Positions 7,506 to 62,941 of a DNA stretch of 64,000 bases are shown here, one piece after another. Each line of letters starts with the position of its first letter. The first letter of the stretch is position 1. Position numbers and translations under genes: made by a program. Location: assembly GCA_026396675.1 (NCBI GenBank), contig JAPLWI010000013.1, positions 1,218 to 65,217 on the forward strand. Direction: 5' to 3'. The DNA comes from Candidatus Kaiserbacteria bacterium (GTDB lineage Bacteria; Patescibacteriota; Minisyncoccia; Phycocordibacterales; Phycocordibacteraceae). Below the pieces are notes generated by a model that had not been told where the DNA came from, searched no databases, and saw only the letters and a list, made by a program, of their open reading frames with translations.

Positions 7506-8762
7506 TTATTTTTTGTGTCTGCGTAGGAATGCCGGAATTGCACCCCATGCTTCATCATCTTCTGGAACCACTGGCGCCTCTTCGCGTTTATGCGGCAATG
7601 CAGTTACGATTGGTTCGTCTTTTTGACTCATAACGGTACCTTCCGGATTTAGTTCCTGATTTTTTACCTTTGCCGATTTTTCGGGTTCGGATTTTTCATC
7701 GCGTTTTAGAATCTCATGATAAATACGTCCTCTTTCCTCCTCGTGCTTTTCAGCAGGTAGTGAGAAGAGAGATCGTTCAAGGATAGTGTGCGAAGCAGTT
7801 ACTGCATCTGGGAATCCAGTTGCGATAACGATAATACGGATCTGTCCTTTTTTAAGTTTCTCGTCACGCATAATTCCGAAAATAACCTTCGCACTCTTAT
7901 CAATGGACTCACTGATAACCTTCGCCGCCTCCTGTACTTCCATGATCCCGAGATCATCAGAGCCGGCGACGACAAAGAGAATGCCGCGCGCACCACTGAT
8001 GGAAACATCGAGAAGTGGAGAATTGACTGCCTGGCGAGCAGCTTCTCTAGCACGCTCATCGCCTTCGGCGATGCCGATGCCCATAAGCGCCGGTCCAGCG
8101 CCTTCCATAATCGCCTTAATGTCATTAAAGTCAGTGTTGATGTCTCCTGGAGTCGTGATGATGTCTGAAACACCCTCAACCGCCTGACGCAAGATTTCAT
8201 CGCACATCGCAAAGGCATTTTTCGCCGAAGTGTTGGTGTCAACAATAGAAAGCAACTTATCGTTTGGAATAACGATGAATGCGTCAACTTCTTTTTTTAA
8301 TTCAGTTAATCCTCTCTCAGCAATATCGCGTCGCTGAGCTCCTTCAAAAGAAAATGGCTTTGTCACAACAGCGATAACCAGCGCGCCAACTTCTTTCGCT
8401 ATTTTTGCAATGATAGCGGAGGCGCCCGTTCCAGTTCCGCCACCCATTCCGCAGGTGATGAACACCATATCGCTTCCTGAGAGCGCTTCTTGAATTTCTT
8501 GTCGCGTCTCCTCGGCAGCACGCTTGCCGAGTTCGGGATTCATACCGGTGCCGAGGCCTCGCGTGAGATTCTTCCCGATGTGAATTTTGCGTTTAGAAAG
8601 CGAACGATGAAGATCCTGCGCATCAGAGTTAACGGCAATAAATTCAACGCCGCGAACCTTCGATTCAATCATGTGATTTATCGCGTTCTTACCTGAACCG
8701 CCTACTCCAACTACACGAATCCGTGCGAATGTCTCAATCTCTGGTTCAATGCGTTTTGACAT
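7506..8762 (-). CDS. ftsZ: Cell division GTPase FtsZ
   Basis: VVGVGGSGKNAINHM, GGGTGTGAS tubulin signature, C-terminal disordered tail. Confidence 0.95.
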   Translation of the reverse strand: MSKRIEPEIETFARIRVVGVGGSGKNAINHMIESKVRGVEFIAVNSDAQDLHRSLSKRKIHIGKNLTRGLGTGMNPELGKRAAEETRQEIQEALSGSDMVFITCGMGGGTGTGASAIIAKIAKEVGALVIAVVTKPFSFEGAQRRDIAERGLTELKKEVDAFIVIPNDKLLSIVDTNTSAKNAFAMCDEILRQAVEGVSDIITTPGDINTDFNDIKAIMEGAGPALMGIGIAEGDERAREAARQAVNSPLLDVSISGARGILFVVAGSDDLGIMEVQEAAKVISESIDKSAKVIFGIMRDEKLKKGQIRIIVIATGFPDAVTASHTILERSLFSLPAEKHEEERGRIYHEILKRDEKSEPEKSAKVKNQELNPEGTVMSQKDEPIVTALPHKREEAPVVPEDDEAWGAIPAFLRRHKK

Positions 8763-8839: not shown

Positions 8840-9340
8840 ATGTTAAAATTAACTAGAATGGAACAAAAGATTGATATAGAAAGAGCTATACGCGACCATC
8901 ACAAACTTATAGAAATTTCGCGGAAGTTATACGATGCAACCCCAGAAATTCTTTGTCCTTATTTCAAATCAAATGTCTCGCTTACTTCTGACGGTTTCAA
9001 TCACCTATTACATAAACCGAATAGACAGCCGAGAAATATCCAAGAGCAGAAACTGAAACTCAGATTGTTAAAGCACGGCCTCGCTATCATTAGTAACACA
9101 GGTACGCTTCAGGAATATAGAACCACTCTTGAGAAATATGGAACACCAGGAAGAGATGGATTCAGTAAAACGAAACAAGTTGAATATTGGGGTTTCCATA
9201 ACATTGTTGGTAAAGAACCGATGATTCTAATTCGCATAATTATAAGAAGAATCGGCGATGGGAAATTACATTTTTGGAGTGTGATGCCAATTGGGAAAAT
9301 AGGAAAGCAAAAACTGTATAGAAATGATGTGGAAGAATAG
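8840..9340 (+). CDS. Uncharacterised ~160-aa protein, copy A of a duplicated module (paralog at 62317-62796)
   Basis: Clear paralogy to the minus-strand ORF at 62317-62850 (GFNH, V.YWG, IGDG.LHFWS..P, K.Y blocks). The conserved start is probably ATG 8858 (MEQK...). Confidence 0.7.
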   Translation: MLKLTRMEQKIDIERAIRDHHKLIEISRKLYDATPEILCPYFKSNVSLTSDGFNHLLHKPNRQPRNIQEQKLKLRLLKHGLAIISNTGTLQEYRTTLEKYGTPGRDGFSKTKQVEYWGFHNIVGKEPMILIRIIIRRIGDGKLHFWSVMPIGKIGKQKLYRNDVEE

Positions 9341-9377
9341 TAAACAGAAAAGCCGCCCAACGGGCGGCTGCTCTGTC

Positions 9378-9443
9378 GTGCCTGCCTTCAGCTTAGGTAA
9401 TCCTTAGCCGATAAGGGGCTTACGCCCACAGGCACGGACTCAT
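9378..9443 (+). ncRNA. Conserved structured element (predicted three-way junction), copy A; preceded by hairpin 9352-9368
   Basis: Outer stem GTGCCTG...CAGGCAC encloses two hairpins (GCTTAGG/CCTTAGC and GGGC-TTAC-GCCC). About 85% identical to the reverse complement of 62221-62283. Confidence 0.5.
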
Positions 9444-9486
9444 TATACACTATGACCACAGCTCGGCAACATTTTCCACAAGCTCC

Positions 9487-9684
9487 TCATTTTGCAAGGT
9501 CCATGGAAATTTTGTAGCCCAGATACAAAACACAAAGAAAAGATGTGACTATATATCCATTCATAAAACCGAATCGCCCATCATTTTCTGGGGCGTAGCC
9601 AAGAAGAAAAGTTGCGGCTGCAAAAATCAAAACGAAATAAAGAAAGTTCTTCCAGAAAATTTTATCTTGCAAAGGAAGTTTCAT
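9487..9684 (-). CDS. Small 2-TM membrane protein, translationally coupled to ftsA (start 5 nt after the ftsA stop)
   Basis: Internal Met of ORF 9487-9801. TGAGTAAAATG coupling arrangement, two hydrophobic helices. Confidence 0.4.
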   Translation of the reverse strand: MKLPLQDKIFWKNFLYFVLIFAAATFLLGYAPENDGRFGFMNGYIVTSFLCVLYLGYKISMDLAK

Positions 9685-9689
9685 TTTAC

Positions 9690-10850
9690 TCAAGGCAAAA
9701 ATTGACGCATAAATTTCCCTAAATGCGCACCGATACTCTTCTTCGGAGCGTTTGTGTCGCCAGTTAGACCCCAGAGCGCGAGACCATATGCAACTGCCCA
9801 TGTCGCATCACGAATTTTTGTATCCGAAGAAATGCGAAATTCAGCAAGCCGTGCAGGAAGTTTTAACGAACCCTTCGCAATGTCGCTTATACTTCCAATG
9901 CCAGCACCACCACCAGAAATGATAATACCAGCCGGTAAAGGACCACGACGACCGAGTGATTTTAAATGCTTATCAATAAGCGCGAACATTGCTACAAGAC
10001 GACTTCCGATAAGATCATCGACTTTTTTACGTGGATACATTTGTCCTGAGAGCCGACCAATTTTTACACGTTCCGCTTCTTCAAGCGAGATACGAAGTCC
10101 CAAAGCGATGTCGTCTGTAATATGACTTGAGCCCATCGGGAATACCTTTACGGATACTGGAATGCCCTCATCGTAGACAACGATAGAAATTGTCTCAGCA
10201 CCGATATTAGCTAGCACACAACCCTTCATTTTCTGGTCGCCTTCGAGGAGTACGTATGAGCCAGCGAGTGGGGAAGCCATTTGGTCGATGATTTCAATAT
10301 CTGCATCTTCGACTGCTTTCGCGAGAGCGTCTTCATGTTGCGCTAGGCAAGTTACGAAAAGATAATCAACTTCAAGCCGAACGCCTTTCATGCCGAATGG
10401 ATCACCAAGCACTTTTGCGCCATCAATACGATATTCAAGTGGGATGCTGTGCAGAACGTGTCGATTAAGAAACCCTGGTGCCGCCACTTCGCGAGCCGCC
10501 TTTCCTGCCTTCTCAAGGTCGAGAGATGTTATTTCTTGGTCGGCTCGCGAGATAATCGCCGAGCCAGTTGCGCGCGATTCGTCGAGCGAAATTCCACCAA
10601 CTGCAAGGAATCCAGAACGAATCGGAATGCGCGCCGACGCCTCTGCTTGTCTCTTTGCTTTCACGATGCAAGCAGAAACCTCTTCTTTATTTACGATGTA
10701 ACCGTGCCGTAGGCCTTTTGATTCGGCGAGGCCAGTACCAAGAATCCGCAATTGACGCAGACCACTGCGTTTGTCCGAGATTTCTTCGACGGTGACTATC
10801 TTTATCTGATAGGTACCGATATCAATGCCGGTCGCTACGCGTCGTGACAT
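9690..10850 (-). CDS. ftsA: Cell division protein FtsA
   Basis: Actin-fold motifs (GIDIGTYQIKIV, ISGGGAGIGSISD). Confidence 0.9.
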   Translation of the reverse strand: MSRRVATGIDIGTYQIKIVTVEEISDKRSGLRQLRILGTGLAESKGLRHGYIVNKEEVSACIVKAKRQAEASARIPIRSGFLAVGGISLDESRATGSAIISRADQEITSLDLEKAGKAAREVAAPGFLNRHVLHSIPLEYRIDGAKVLGDPFGMKGVRLEVDYLFVTCLAQHEDALAKAVEDADIEIIDQMASPLAGSYVLLEGDQKMKGCVLANIGAETISIVVYDEGIPVSVKVFPMGSSHITDDIALGLRISLEEAERVKIGRLSGQMYPRKKVDDLIGSRLVAMFALIDKHLKSLGRRGPLPAGIIISGGGAGIGSISDIAKGSLKLPARLAEFRISSDTKIRDATWAVAYGLALWGLTGDTNAPKKSIGAHLGKFMRQFLP

Positions 10851-22009: not shown

Positions 22010-23112
22010 AAACGCACTTTTTCGTCATCGCTTTCTTTGCGCTTTTCGTATTTGCGCCGGCGGCGTTCGCTGCAGGCAGTCCAAACGGTAGCGCCTGTTC
22101 ATCTTCTTCGGAATGCTCTGGGGGATTTTGTAACTCGGACACTTCTAATCCAAACAGTATGTATGGAGTATGTGCTTCTAGTGCCGCAAAGACCCAGACG
22201 ACTGGTGTTGATACTTCTAAAACACAAACGACCGGTGTCGATACAACCGGTCAGAATGTTACGCTCATCAATCCTCTCGGTGCGGGAACCAATATTGAAA
22301 CCCTCATCAATCAAATTTTGGCGTTTGTCGTGCGCATTGGCGCCATCATCGTTATTCTGATGTTGGTCTATGTTGGTTTCCTATTCGTTACTGCAAAAGG
22401 AAATGAATCAAAAATTATTGAAGCGCGTCAAGCGCTTCTCTGGACCATCATTGGCGCGCTTATTCTACTTGGTGCGCAGGTAATATCTCTCGGTATTCAG
22501 GCAACAGTACAGGCGCTCTCAACTGGCAATGCCAGCACCAATTCAACTATTCCGAGTGCTGGTAGTTTAACTTTCCCTGGTGCCAGTAGTTTCAGTGGCG
22601 GCACCGTAACAACAGCAACGCAGCAGACCTATGCAAACGCAATAAATCAAGCGCAGAATGCATTCAATACCGCTTGTTCGCAATATGGTAATACAAGCAA
22701 CGAGTGCAAGTCAGCAGGAGCGACTCTCCAACAAGTGGTGCAGAACTTAAGTAATGCAAGCGGGGGCACTTTAGGAGGAGCACTTGGAACAGTAACTTCT
22801 GCCATTAAATCAGTAACATCAGGGACAGGATCGCTAAACACAATAAACTCGGCTGTCGGCTCGTTAACTTCAAAAGCCAAAGCATTGTTTGGCGGGAGCG
22901 GTAGTGAATTTGACGACCCGAAGAATGGTGTTGATTATGCAGCACCCCCAGACACTAGTTCCTACGATAATAATACTGATTACACAGCTCCTGACACCAG
23001 TGCCTACGATAATAGTACTGATTACACAGCTCCTGACACCAGTGGCGACAACCAAAGCAGTTATGAGGCACCTACTGACACTACTGACACTAGCAACGAC
23101 TACTATTATTAA
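22006..23112 (+). CDS. Secreted Cys-rich protein carrying the conserved double-TM (pilin-like) module plus a C-terminal YxxTDYTAPDTS repeat tail
   Basis: Signal peptide, CSSSSECSGGFC, central module LINQILAFVV...LLWTIIGALILLG, then 36-bp tandem DNA repeats at about 22960-23045. Confidence 0.6.
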   Translation: MKTHFFVIAFFALFVFAPAAFAAGSPNGSACSSSSECSGGFCNSDTSNPNSMYGVCASSAAKTQTTGVDTSKTQTTGVDTTGQNVTLINPLGAGTNIETLINQILAFVVRIGAIIVILMLVYVGFLFVTAKGNESKIIEARQALLWTIIGALILLGAQVISLGIQATVQALSTGNASTNSTIPSAGSLTFPGASSFSGGTVTTATQQTYANAINQAQNAFNTACSQYGNTSNECKSAGATLQQVVQNLSNASGGTLGGALGTVTSAIKSVTSGTGSLNTINSAVGSLTSKAKALFGGSGSEFDDPKNGVDYAAPPDTSSYDNNTDYTAPDTSAYDNSTDYTAPDTSGDNQSSYEAPTDTTDTSNDYYY

Positions 23113-58527: not shown

Positions 58528-59277
58528 TCAGGATACGGTGCGAATTATTTCCGTAAGATAATCAACTTCTTTGAAAAATCGTTCTGTGCGCGTGTCGCGC
58601 GGGCGCGTGAGATTTATTGAAATCGTTTCTCGAACACTACCGGGGCGCGTACCCATCACGATGATCTGGTCCGACAGTTCAATCGCATCAGGAATGAGAT
58701 GGTTCACCATGAAAATCGTCATGCCGTATGAACGCCAGATTTTTAGCAGATCAGCTTTCAGTGATTCAACGGTAATAGTATCCAGATTAGAAAACGGTTC
58801 GTCCATGATCAAAAAATCAGGAGAAATCGCGAGCGCGCGCGCGAGACCAACGCGCTGGCGCTGGCCGCCAGATAGCGCAGAAGGATAATGATTTTCAAAA
58901 TGTTCAAGACCAACTTCCTTTAATTTCTCGCGTGCGATACGTTTACGTTCTCTTCGCGACATTCCCGCCATTCGTAGACCAAACGCTACATTATCAATCG
59001 CAGAGAGCCAAGGGAAAAGCGCATAATTTTGAAATACCATCGCCGGCCGAGAAAAATTGCGTACGATGGTGCCGCTCGTATGGTTCATCAAACCGAGAAT
59101 AACGCGCATCAAAGTTGATTTGCCGGCGCCAGACGGTCCGATAATCGAGACGAATCCGCCGGTGGGGATAGAGAGCGAAACATCCTTTAAAACCAGTGTA
59201 TTTTTTGTTTCTTCGTCCTTAAATTGCGCGGAGACGCGCGCGAGGACGAGTGCCATGTCGTGTTTATTATTCTGCAT
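58528..59277 (-). CDS. ABC transporter ATP-binding protein (NitT/TauT-like)
   Basis: GPSGAGKST, LSGGQRQRVGLARAL, IMDEPFSNLD. Confidence 0.85.
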   Translation of the reverse strand: MQNNKHDMALVLARVSAQFKDEETKNTLVLKDVSLSIPTGGFVSIIGPSGAGKSTLMRVILGLMNHTSGTIVRNFSRPAMVFQNYALFPWLSAIDNVAFGLRMAGMSRRERKRIAREKLKEVGLEHFENHYPSALSGGQRQRVGLARALAISPDFLIMDEPFSNLDTITVESLKADLLKIWRSYGMTIFMVNHLIPDAIELSDQIIVMGTRPGSVRETISINLTRPRDTRTERFFKEVDYLTEIIRTVS

Positions 59278-59590
59278 ACCGAGTAGGACAACTTTGGATT
59301 GCGCCTCCTGCTACATGATCTCGCAAACGCTTAGCGAGAAAGCGGCGGCCTCCGGTCGTTTTGAGATAACCTTCGCGACGTTTCGTATCACTGTACGAAC
59401 GACCAGCTTCATAATAAATGAGTACAAATGGCCGCCGCGGAGCAGTTGAAAAACTTTTACCAGCTTGATGTTCTTGGAATCGTCGGCGCAGATCATTGGT
59501 CATACCAACATAGCGTTTCCCATCAGTCATACTTTGCAGTATATAGACATAATAAAATTTATTCTTATCCAAAGTTGTACTACTCGGCAT
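59267..59590 (-). CDS. GIY-YIG nuclease-domain protein (YhbQ/UPF0213-like)
   Basis: FYYVYILQS...KRYVGMTNDLRRRFQEHQ. Confidence 0.7.
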   Translation of the reverse strand: MPSSTTLDKNKFYYVYILQSMTDGKRYVGMTNDLRRRFQEHQAGKSFSTAPRRPFVLIYYEAGRSYSDTKRREGYLKTTGGRRFLAKRLRDHVAGGAIQSCPTRYAE

Positions 59591-61453: not shown

Positions 61454-61524
61454 TGCGGGATCATCTAATGGTAGGATGCGACTCTCTGAAAGTCGTTATT
61501 TTGGTTCGAATCCAAATCCCGCAG
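61454..61524 (+). tRNA. tRNA-Gln (anticodon CTG), begins with U1-A72 pair
   Basis: Acceptor TGCGGGA/TCCCGCA, D-arm ATCT-AATGGTA-GGAT, anticodon stem CGACT/AGTCG with loop CTCTGAA, T-loop TTCGAAT. Confidence 0.65.
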
Positions 61525-61637: not shown

Positions 61638-61904
61638 ATGTATGGAATGCATTTCGTCTACATCCTCGAATGCGTCGATAAATCTCTTTATGTCGGATGT
61701 ACTAATAATCTCGAGAAACGCCTCAAACAACATAACGATTCAAAATGGGGTGCGCACTATACAAAAATCCGTAGGCCAGTAATTCTGAAATATTCAGAAA
61801 CATTTCCAACTCTTAAAGAAGCTCGTAAACGAGAATCCGAAATCAAAAGTTGGCGACGAGAAAAGAAATTAAGTTTGATACAATACAAGTTATGCAAAAA
61901 ATAG
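61638..61904 (+). CDS. GIY-YIG nuclease-domain protein (YhbQ/UPF0213-like)
   Basis: HFVYILEC...SLYVGCTNNLEKRLKQHN. Confidence 0.7.
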   Translation: MYGMHFVYILECVDKSLYVGCTNNLEKRLKQHNDSKWGAHYTKIRRPVILKYSETFPTLKEARKRESEIKSWRREKKLSLIQYKLCKK

Positions 61905-62164
61905 AAAAGAAGATTTGGCCGGAATATTTTCAGCAGGTTCTTGATAACAAGAAAATATTTGAGCTTCGTCTGAATGATTTTGAAATTGAAGAGGGCGACA
62001 CGCTTGTACTGAAAGAATGGGATCCAGAGACAAAGGAGTACACAGGTCGGGAAGTAGAGAAACAGGTTGGCTATGTCGGCAAATGGAAAATTGAAGAACT
62101 AGAAAAGTTCTGGCCAAAAGAAGATATAGACAGTAAGGGACTTCAGGTTATTTCAATAAAATAG
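61892..62164 (+). CDS. ASCH/DUF3850-like small protein
   Basis: KKIWPEYFQQVLDNKKIFELRLNDFEIEEGDTLVLKEW pattern. Start at the internal Met. Confidence 0.4.
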   Translation: MQKIEKKIWPEYFQQVLDNKKIFELRLNDFEIEEGDTLVLKEWDPETKEYTGREVEKQVGYVGKWKIEELEKFWPKEDIDSKGLQVISIK

Positions 62165-62220
62165 TTGGAAACAGCGTTACCCACACCCTCATTGATTCCT
62201 CACTTCCTATCCTGTATAGT

Positions 62221-62283
62221 ATGAGTGTGCCTGTGGGGCGTCAGCCCTATTCCGGCTAATCGTAAGCCGAAGGCAGGCATATC
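62221..62283 (-). ncRNA. Conserved structured element (predicted three-way junction), copy B; preceded on the minus strand by hairpin 62284-62316
   Basis: The reverse complement reads ATGCCTGCCTTCGGCTTACGATTAGCCGGAATAGGGCTGACGCCCCACAGGCACACTCAT, homologous to 9378-9443. Confidence 0.5.
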
Positions 62284-62316
62284 AAAATCACCGACCTCGC
62301 GTCGGTGTTTTTGATT

Positions 62317-62796
62317 TTAGTCCTCCTCGGGATTACCCTTCATTGTGCTGTAGAGCTTTATGTCGCGGTATTTGTTCGTCGTCCACGCTGGCACAATGCT
62401 CCAGAAATGGAGTTGGCCATTATCGCCGATTTTTCGCAGGATGACTTTTATCTTGCGTCCATCAATAATCGCTATGATGCCCCAGTACTTTACAGACCTG
62501 CTTCTCTGAACCTTTTTCTTATAGCTCTTCACTTCAAATTCTTTGAGCGTTTCTTCATATTCCTGATAAGTCGTTGAGAGTTCTACGAGCTTTACGGCTT
62601 TCGGCAATAACTTAAATCGCAGGATTTGTGATGGACGCTCGCGCTCGCTCCGTGAGCCCTTAAAGATGATGTGATTGAAGCCCTCGGCGGTAAAATAAAC
62701 ATACTCACCAAGCGCGGGAGATTGGATAGGACGTATACTCGCGTAGAACTTCTGCGCGTCCTCACAGAGTTTTTCGTAGTTAGATACATCTTCCAT
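62317..62796 (-). CDS. Uncharacterised ~160-aa protein, copy B of the duplicated module (paralog of 8840-9340)
   Basis: Aligns end-to-end with copy A. The ORF track extends it to a TTG at 62850; the conserved ATG (MEDVS...) is at 62796. Confidence 0.7.
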   Translation of the reverse strand: MEDVSNYEKLCEDAQKFYASIRPIQSPALGEYVYFTAEGFNHIIFKGSRSERERPSQILRFKLLPKAVKLVELSTTYQEYEETLKEFEVKSYKKKVQRSRSVKYWGIIAIIDGRKIKVILRKIGDNGQLHFWSIVPAWTTNKYRDIKLYSTMKGNPEED

Positions 62797-62941
62797 TGAG
62801 AATAGTTTACACCGTTGCAAGCAAATCTGGTATAAATATCTTATATGCAAACTGTGATTTACCAGTCAGAAGTACGGTTCTGACTTCATCCAAGTCCCGC
62901 AGCCGGCGCTTTTTACTTGGAATTATGCTATACATTTAACT

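Follow-up and report, generated by a model that had tools for sequence, protein, structure and literature searches.

The 64,000-nt stretch of Candidatus Kaiserbacteria DNA analyzed here (hereafter, the window) carries at two places an element of about 65 nt, which a preliminary description predicted to fold as a three-way junction. This raises the question of whether the element acts as DNA, for example as a recombination or transposition end of the IS200/IS605 kind, or as RNA, and, in the latter case, from which strand, with which partner and to what effect.

The element itself proved to be real. Both copies (copy A, 9378-9443; copy B, 62221-62283) were found where they had been placed, and each folds on its own as a three-way junction (3WJ). 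Alignment of the two copies showed identical stems and indels located in the first hairpin, as described; for copy B, the location held and the length did not, the quoted sequence counting 60 nt for an interval of 63 nt, a trivial offset. The fold z-scores amounted to -2.7 and -3.3 on the strand that was read initially and to -3.9 for both copies on the opposite strand. The suggested check by covariance model, carried out with 135 homologs, recovered exactly two sites in the window, scoring 71 bits (copy B) and 63 bits (copy A), the third-best site reaching 11.8 bits. The likewise suggested comparison with Rfam 15, performed at gathering and permissive thresholds for both loci, yielded no family matching the element: the threshold was reached solely by tRNAs elsewhere in the window, and the best sub-threshold matches at the two loci were terminator-driven (≤20 bits, E ≥0.17). 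A hammerhead, already discounted beforehand, or another ribozyme was rejected on the absence of the core motifs and of any Rfam match, and so was a tRNA-like identity, as neither ARAGORN nor Rfam gave a tRNA match and a 7-nt anticodon loop is missing.

The strand, in turn, had to be reassigned. When base pairs are counted across homologs on the strand opposite to the one read in the preliminary description, G-U cells far outnumber A-C cells, with 278 versus 1 in the alignment of B-type relatives and 138 versus 22 in the A-type alignment. In line with this, the outer stem on the gene-sense strand often reads GCCTG...CAAGC among homologs, so that C faces A on that strand, whereas the opposite one has a G-U pair. 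Since selection at the DNA level would not generate such an asymmetry, a DNA hairpin is unlikely, and what is under selection is therefore an RNA encoded on the opposite strand. It is also on this strand that -35 and -10 boxes are found upstream of the element and a hairpin with a T-run downstream of it (Table 1). The GC-rich hairpin adjoining the element is hence the terminator that it had been suspected to be, and the element, possessing its own promoter and terminator on the other strand, is indeed not the 3' UTR of the upstream gene. The hairpin of copy A lacks a T-run on its gene-sense side; the terminator of copy B scores on the minus strand too and is thus bidirectional.

Table 1. Positions of the features of the two cassettes, given in window coordinates
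Feature	Position	Strand	Remarks
Extended -10 element of partner protein gene A	8841..8849	+	TGTTAAAAT; ends 8 nt before ATG 8858
Partner protein gene A (LPD3-like family)	8858..9340	+	160 aa; likely start ATG 8858 as in homologs; longest ORF from 8840
Intrinsic terminator of sRNA copy A	9341..9369	-	8-bp GC stem, then TTTCTGTTTA; abuts the protein gene stop codon
3WJ core of sRNA copy A (A-type)	9378..9435	-	covariance model (63 bits) and folding
Promoter of sRNA copy A	9442..9469	-	TTGCCG-16 nt-TATAAT, with a preceding TG; 10/12 consensus matches
Promoter of sRNA copy B	62192..62220	+	TTGATT-17 nt-TATAGT
3WJ core of sRNA copy B (B-type)	62227..62280	+	covariance model (71 bits); P2 with GUCA loop, short P3
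Terminator of sRNA copy B	62289..62317	+	7-bp stem, then TTTTTGATTT
Partner protein gene B	62317..62796	-	159 aa; homologs start at MEDVSNY (ATG 62796); longest ORF from TTG 62850

The same signals accompany the element in its homologs. A -10 box with at least five of six matches is present in 119 of 146 unique loci; its start position is identical in 93 of the 146, with its end approximately 5 nt before the outer stem (P1) and the TTG of the -35 box at 17-nt spacing. By a strict test requiring a stem plus T-run, a hairpin and T-run follow the RNA in 134 of 148 homologs, and the remainder look imperfect rather than absent. The sigma-70 promoter is predicted to fire some 7 nt upstream of P1, the junction begins at about the transcription start, and the predicted transcript, some 93 nt in total, would consist of the 54-58-nt 3WJ, a short A-rich linker and the intrinsic terminator. 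Four loci are particularly informative on this point (L147, L148, L154 and L157): here the RNA precedes the gene and points in the same direction, in the order promoter, RNA, terminator, gene. The RNA changes its orientation with respect to the gene but not with respect to its own signals, which identifies the element as a small RNA (sRNA) gene of approximately 93 nt.

With two copies and identical stems, covariation could not be seen, as had been correctly stated; it was supplied by the homologs. In the alignments built with the covariance model, which comprise 80 and 60 distinct sequences, 99.4% and 95.5% of the cells are paired, compared to 24-47% in slid controls, and double changes occur at six and five pairs, respectively, values which none of 500 shuffles reached. 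Aligning 20 diverse sequences with MAFFT alone gave a similar picture, with 97.5% of the cells paired (27-49% in slid controls) and compensatory changes in six of seven P1 pairs and two of three P2 pairs, again reached in 0/500 shuffles. RNAalifold independently returned the same junction, and so did 13 single-sequence folds. In copy A, P1 is formed by GUGCCUGU and GCAGGCAC, P2 reads GGGC-GUAA-GCCC with a GNRA loop, and P3 is a long hairpin containing a conserved A-A mismatch. Across the family, P1 measures 7-8 bp, the P2 tetraloop is GNRA in A-type and GUCA in B-type RNAs, and conservation extends to the P1-P2 junction (YUGU, then GGG), to the UUC/GAA base of P3 and to the A-A mismatch within P3, the distal part of P3 being variable. 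The core is nearly invariant in sequence, unpaired junction bases included. Taken together, these results establish a well-supported family of structured RNAs, which is new and absent from Rfam 15.

Turning to the surroundings, the copy A cassette (approximately 8.8-9.5 kb) is located between ftsZ (7506-8762, minus strand) and ftsA (9690-10850, minus strand) and points the opposite way; it gives the impression of having been inserted between ftsA and ftsZ, which are normally neighbors. A 104-aa ORF overlapping this region (9487-9801, minus strand) is probably spurious. Copy B resides among small accessory genes (GIY-YIG, DUF3850/ASCH, methyltransferase), including two small standalone GIY-YIG ORFs and a DUF3850/ASCH ORF at 59267-59590 (minus), 61638-61904 (plus) and 61850-62164 (plus), with a tRNA at 61454-61524, a neighborhood that has the appearance of a patch of accessory or mobile-looking genes. 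Neither tandem or direct repeats nor flanking terminal repeats were found in or around either cassette. A 42-nt tandem repeat elsewhere in the window (22951-23044; 2.2 copies, 94% matches) is unrelated to the element.

Each copy of the RNA gene faces a gene for a small protein. Proteins A and B share 32% identity, and protein A is 100% identical to a protein from a Ca. Kaiserbacteria metagenome-assembled genome (P0121). At gene B, as at gene A, an extended -10 element (TGTAAACT) ends shortly before the start codon, at a distance of 7-8 nt (window 62796-62811), and a Shine-Dalgarno sequence is not visible at either gene (windows 8841-8860 and 62796-62811). The spacing from the -10 element to the ATG is the same at homologous loci, which suggests that the mRNAs of both protein genes are leaderless. 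Relatives of the protein number in the hundreds and come nearly all from Patescibacteria; a profile search of 1.84 billion representatives gave 1318 clusters at 50% identity (E ≤1e-3), almost all of them standalone proteins of 140-165 aa.

Among Pfam families, LPD3 was the sole recurrent match, obtained for 14 of 66 family members with a best E-value of 1.7e-6. Protein B scored 14 bits, below the 27-bit gathering cut-off, and protein A gave no match; nor was there a match for either protein in PADLOC, NCBIfam or PHROGs, or for the protein in a sequence profile search of the PDB. According to Iyer et al. (2017, PMC5512222), LPD3 (PF18798) is a domain of unknown function in the polyvalent proteins of phages and plasmids; it forms part of inter-genomic conflict systems and is found together with PBECR RNase domains. 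The predicted models are globular alpha/beta folds with helices packed on a four- to five-stranded antiparallel sheet. When these were compared to BFVD with Foldseek, the top matches were phage polyvalent proteins, at E-values of merely 0.01-0.1: ranks 1-2 are annotated as "PolyVal ADP-ribosyltransferase" (probability 0.97-0.99) and ranks 3, 4 and 10 as LPD3 (probability 0.72-0.97), so that similarity to LPD3 domains is also seen at the level of predicted structure. On these grounds we regard the protein as a distant LPD3 relative. The best structural matches of both predicted models were RelE/ParE and BECR-fold RNase toxins; the match is weak, and a BECR/RelE-like fold is the best lead, if a weak one. 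Residues G46, H49, R59 and Q85 are invariant family-wide, and in the family consensus a Glu, not scored as conserved, stands next to the invariant Gln (QE); the invariant His, Arg and Gln would be compatible with a metal-independent RNase site.

To what extent the RNA and the protein belong together was evaluated at 160 loci. These comprised 80 genome loci fetched with a mixed alignment, which are B-type relatives and include three Brevundimonas or Caulobacteraceae loci, and a further 80 metagenome loci fetched with an A-type alignment. The RNA was found beside the gene in 79/80 of the former and 78/80 of the latter (157/160). This recurrence, far more than chance would give, disposes of the concern that further homologs of the element might be lacking. 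Two of the three exceptions are contig ends (L110 and L132). The third, L013 (2501-3200), is the one locus that lacks the RNA in spite of offering space for it; its protein gene is cut short at the C-terminal end and continues in frame into a recombinase-like ORF, which fits either joint loss of both partners or an assembly chimera. The pairing also extends to nine distant subfamily members, in all of which (9/9) a convergent RNA equipped with a promoter was found immediately behind the stop codon; the helix sequences of these nine RNAs are very different, their architecture is alike, and each folds alone into the same junction.

Protein and RNA subtypes match in 148 of 150 loci (B/B in 78, A/A in 70, two odd cases), and the surveyed loci have one 3WJ per gene. 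In two places, an A-type cassette adjoins a second cassette (L051, 2428-3333, where the second is B-type; L084, 1464-2354), and there, too, the type of each RNA matches its own gene. Next to one cassette (L073, 3176-3246), a second, very divergent 3WJ RNA (36 bits, with a long AU-rich P3) is found beside the regular RNA and has no second protein gene. In the all-against-all ORF comparison of the 160 loci, no third gene family recurs beside the pair: after the protein itself (154 loci), the next ORF families occur in at most 13 loci, with examples located inside the protein gene itself, on its complementary strand. As no other gene family recurs, the module therefore has two components. Specifically, no ORF for a protein antitoxin or immunity protein was found beside the gene in these loci, and in the window the intervals up to the flanking genes do not leave enough room for one.

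The layout is convergent in 146 of 150 loci, the remaining four being the tandem loci described above. We are thus highly confident of the following anatomy: each copy is an independent sRNA gene on the opposite strand, with its own sigma-70 promoter and intrinsic terminator, obligately paired with one gene for an LPD3 relative of about 160 aa, usually convergent with it and sharing a common terminator hairpin, and rarely in the order promoter, RNA, terminator, gene. The genes neighboring this module differ from locus to locus, and the module is present in many lineages of the CPR and also in Brevundimonas. In the cultured alphaproteobacterium Brevundimonas sp. BR2-1 (L067, 348-5027), it is found among an XRE-type HTH gene, a non-specific endonuclease gene, DUF1353 and uncharacterized small ORFs, in what may be a prophage or genomic island; the isolate would offer a tractable experimental host. 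Overall, the two divergent copies within 64 kb, the varied neighbors, the patchy spread and the large family resemble the distribution of selfish or defense elements.

The RNA also occurs without the protein, in three phage lineages. The first (L164, 69 bits) carries an A-type RNA under a TTGACT-17-TATAAT promoter of its own, with a large terminase gene at a distance of 3.6 kb. In the second (L186/L188, 44.5 bits), the RNA sits between tRNA-Lys and tRNA-Gly, taking up one position in an array of 18 tRNAs with an adjoining endolysin gene, and it probably matures by tRNA processing. The third (L173/L177, 33 bits, borderline if corrected for the size of IMG/VR) has the RNA just upstream of the terminase genes. 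All these phage RNAs keep P1, P2 and the junction and have a P3 of their own. The family HMM detected no protein homolog in the orphan loci, with positive controls scoring 156-184 bits, and the family protein was found neither in IMG/VR nor, by tblastn, in phage and plasmid collections. Pattern scans of viral contigs with 15-17 specified bases mostly returned chance matches; in one scan, seven of 38 stretches fitted the covariance model (six plus L164). The tRNA array of L186 contains a second unexplained gap of 193 nt (1010-1202), between tRNA-Arg and tRNA-Asp, the tRNAs being spaced by 0-5 nt elsewhere, and this gap may hold another stable RNA that is not a tRNA.

How, then, might the two partners work together? 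The reading that we tentatively favor, at slightly below an even chance, is that the RNA is an antidote, which binds and silences a toxic, probably RNA-cleaving protein by a logic like that of type III toxin-antitoxin (TA) systems, implemented in a different architecture, and of which phages carry decoys. According to this model, the pair would form a two-component toxin/antidote or defense module, in which the invariant P1-P2-junction core of the folded RNA would serve to bind the cognate protein, thereby silencing a toxic, probably RNA-cleaving, activity. A drop in RNA supply, as might follow a phage-induced shut-off of transcription, would leave free protein to arrest the cell, and phages would respond with RNA-only copies serving as decoy antidote. 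Toxicity, RNase activity and RNA-protein binding of the pair are what we infer from comparative sequence data. Complementarity between the RNA and the start region of the mRNA was no better than for shuffled sequences (mean z 0.07), and this, together with the tandem loci, argues that the protein recognizes the folded RNA rather than being under antisense control. Counted against the antidote reading were the single non-repeated RNA, the convergent rather than RNA-first arrangement of 146 of the 150 loci, the lack of a known function for LPD3 and the number of phage orphan lineages, which is three. The reading is further weakened because a stable, non-toxic ribonucleoprotein would give the same co-occurrence and co-variation.

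A more specific version of the antidote reading, which we consider doubtful at present, is that the junction RNA mimics a substrate: with its acceptor-stem-like P1 and approximate tRNA size, it could act as antidote to a new group of LPD3-type RNases targeting tRNA or a similar stable RNA. If this were true, LPD3 would acquire its first function, the pair would constitute a new class of RNA antitoxins (single junction RNA, own promoter, convergent layout) abundant in the reduced genomes of the CPR, and phages would be seen to smuggle the antidote within tRNA arrays as an anti-defense RNA.

The closest competitor, somewhat unlikely in our estimate, is the dedicated ribonucleoprotein just mentioned, devoid of toxin logic, in which the RNA would serve the LPD3-like protein as stable cofactor, scaffold or substrate and both would act jointly on a cellular or invader target. 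The RNA might, for example, be required by an RNA-dependent enzyme or be modified or processed by the protein. Such a particle would account for the strict co-occurrence, the co-variation of subtypes and the lack of other partners; a near-invariant RNA core that includes junction bases and a GNRA loop is what catalytic or ligand-binding RNAs show, and the position of the L186 RNA in a tRNA array resembles that of a housekeeping stable RNA. However, phages were found with the RNA only and in no case with the protein only, which is hard to explain if the RNA works only in a complex, and the multi-copy, patchy and context-free spread is more like that of selfish or defense modules than that of housekeeping ribonucleoproteins.

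Control in cis by antisense, as in type I systems, would have the sRNA pair with the 3' end of the mRNA or with read-through transcripts, or act by transcriptional collision, and thereby lower the amount of protein. It is the convergent layout with one hairpin in common that speaks for this possibility, and at copy A, where the hairpin has no gene-sense T-run, the mRNA may read through into sequence antisense to the RNA. We nevertheless judge it improbable, given that the four loci with an upstream, co-directional RNA have no antisense overlap, that the orphan phage RNAs have no cognate mRNA, that compensatory changes preserve the 3WJ and not simple complementarity, that the translation start shows no complementarity, and that the protein, with 160 aa and soluble, is unlike type I peptides.

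Very improbable, in our view, is an exchange of roles, whereby the RNA would be the harmful or regulatory partner, for instance through tRNA-like mimicry sequestering a cellular factor, and the protein an RNase holding it in check, as in type V or type VIII systems. An RNA serving host takeover would likewise be consistent with the RNA-only phages, in one of which it lies within a tRNA array, and the 7-8-bp P1 resembles an acceptor stem; against this, the host RNAs each have a strong, constitutive-looking promoter and a stable fold, and at the RNA-less locus L013 the protein gene is truncated, which is what a dangerous protein would lead one to expect, albeit in a single case. Finally, a DNA hairpin acting as a recombination or transposition end of the IS200/IS605 type, as initially proposed, or a gene-sense 3' UTR element is barely credible, since the location of the element at the edge of a small cassette in varied contexts, interrupting ftsA-ftsZ in the case of copy A, is set against the G-U/A-C asymmetry indicating RNA-level selection on the other strand, C-A mismatches in the outer stem of most homologs on the gene-sense strand, a promoter and terminator of the element's own, and the absence of TnpA/TnpB or any other recurring transposase in the 160 loci, of a second end and of terminal repeats.

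Regardless of function, the data define an undescribed sRNA family that is specifically and obligately paired with a standalone LPD3-like protein. To our knowledge, RNA-neutralized protein toxins are confined to three type III families, which are related to one another and invariably have RNAs in repeat arrays, and the conflict biology of CPR/Patescibacteria is almost unexplored. Should the antidote reading be correct, a widespread antidote made of a single 3WJ and directed at an unrelated protein fold would widen the known modes of RNA antidotes. It would likewise point to a defense or addiction system in CPR/Patescibacteria and offer a first way into the function of LPD3, the domain of phage polyvalent proteins. 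The RNA-only phage copies, one of them among tRNA genes, suggest that anti-defense small RNAs may be overlooked by ordinary annotation, and the presence of cognate A and B pairs within one genome makes the proposed mechanism testable by toxicity-rescue. Our search of the literature retrieved no LPD3-RNA module and no RNA partner or function for LPD3; one 2026 preprint on the coevolutionary mining of ncRNA-protein systems (10.64898/2026.09.22.753630), for which the search showed no co-mention of LPD3, Patescibacteria or BECR, may overlap with the present findings.

How does this pair compare to known systems? It shares with the type III systems ToxIN, CptIN and TenpIN a small protein and a cis-encoded structured ncRNA of cognate specificity, the absence of an antitoxin protein, a terminator that separates the RNA from the protein gene, with an identical promoter-RNA-terminator-gene order in four loci, and RNA-only copies carried by phages. 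Known type III toxins are endoRNases, and their antitoxins are tandem repeats processed by the toxin. Whereas these antitoxins are arrays of 34-36-nt pseudoknot repeats cut by the toxin and encoded upstream under one promoter, the RNA described here is a single non-repeated 3WJ, usually convergent and on its own promoter, and the protein has no Pfam, NCBIfam or PADLOC match to ToxN/CptN/TenpN (AbiQ-like) and appears, from the predicted models, to adopt another fold.

The orphan RNAs have a possible counterpart in phage PhiTE, which carries pseudo-ToxI, an RNA-only copy of the host module that neutralizes the toxin and allows escape from abortive infection (PMC3475682). By analogy, the three phage lineages with orphan 3WJ RNAs and no protein may play a comparable part; in PhiTE, however, the escape phenotype was observed with the host, whereas the phage RNAs described here, one of them in a tRNA array, are known from their sequences.

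As far as the protein is concerned, the predicted models find their best, and weak, matches among RelE/ParE-BECR toxins (RelE, YoeB, BrnT, colicin E5/D, CdiA-CT); in contrast to type II systems of the RelE/ParE kind, which have an adjacent gene for a protein antitoxin or immunity protein, none is conserved here. LPD3, the sole recurrent sequence-family match, is also among the top BFVD Foldseek matches by annotation, but the window proteins score below the Pfam threshold and are standalone, chromosomal and paired with an RNA.

In the type I systems bsrG/SR4 and txpA/RatA, a convergent antisense sRNA at the 3' end of the toxin gene acts through extended base pairing, and the toxins are short membrane peptides. 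The convergent sRNA gene at the 3' end of the protein gene is the feature in common; in our case, however, the overlap is limited to the common terminator, it is structure and not complementarity that is conserved, and the small hydrophobic peptide is replaced by a protein of 159-160 aa predicted to be globular alpha/beta. Missing the defining features of type III systems (repeats, gene order and a ToxN-like toxin), the peptide toxin of type I and the adjacent protein antitoxin of type II, the pair would, if it is a TA system at all, represent a new variant.
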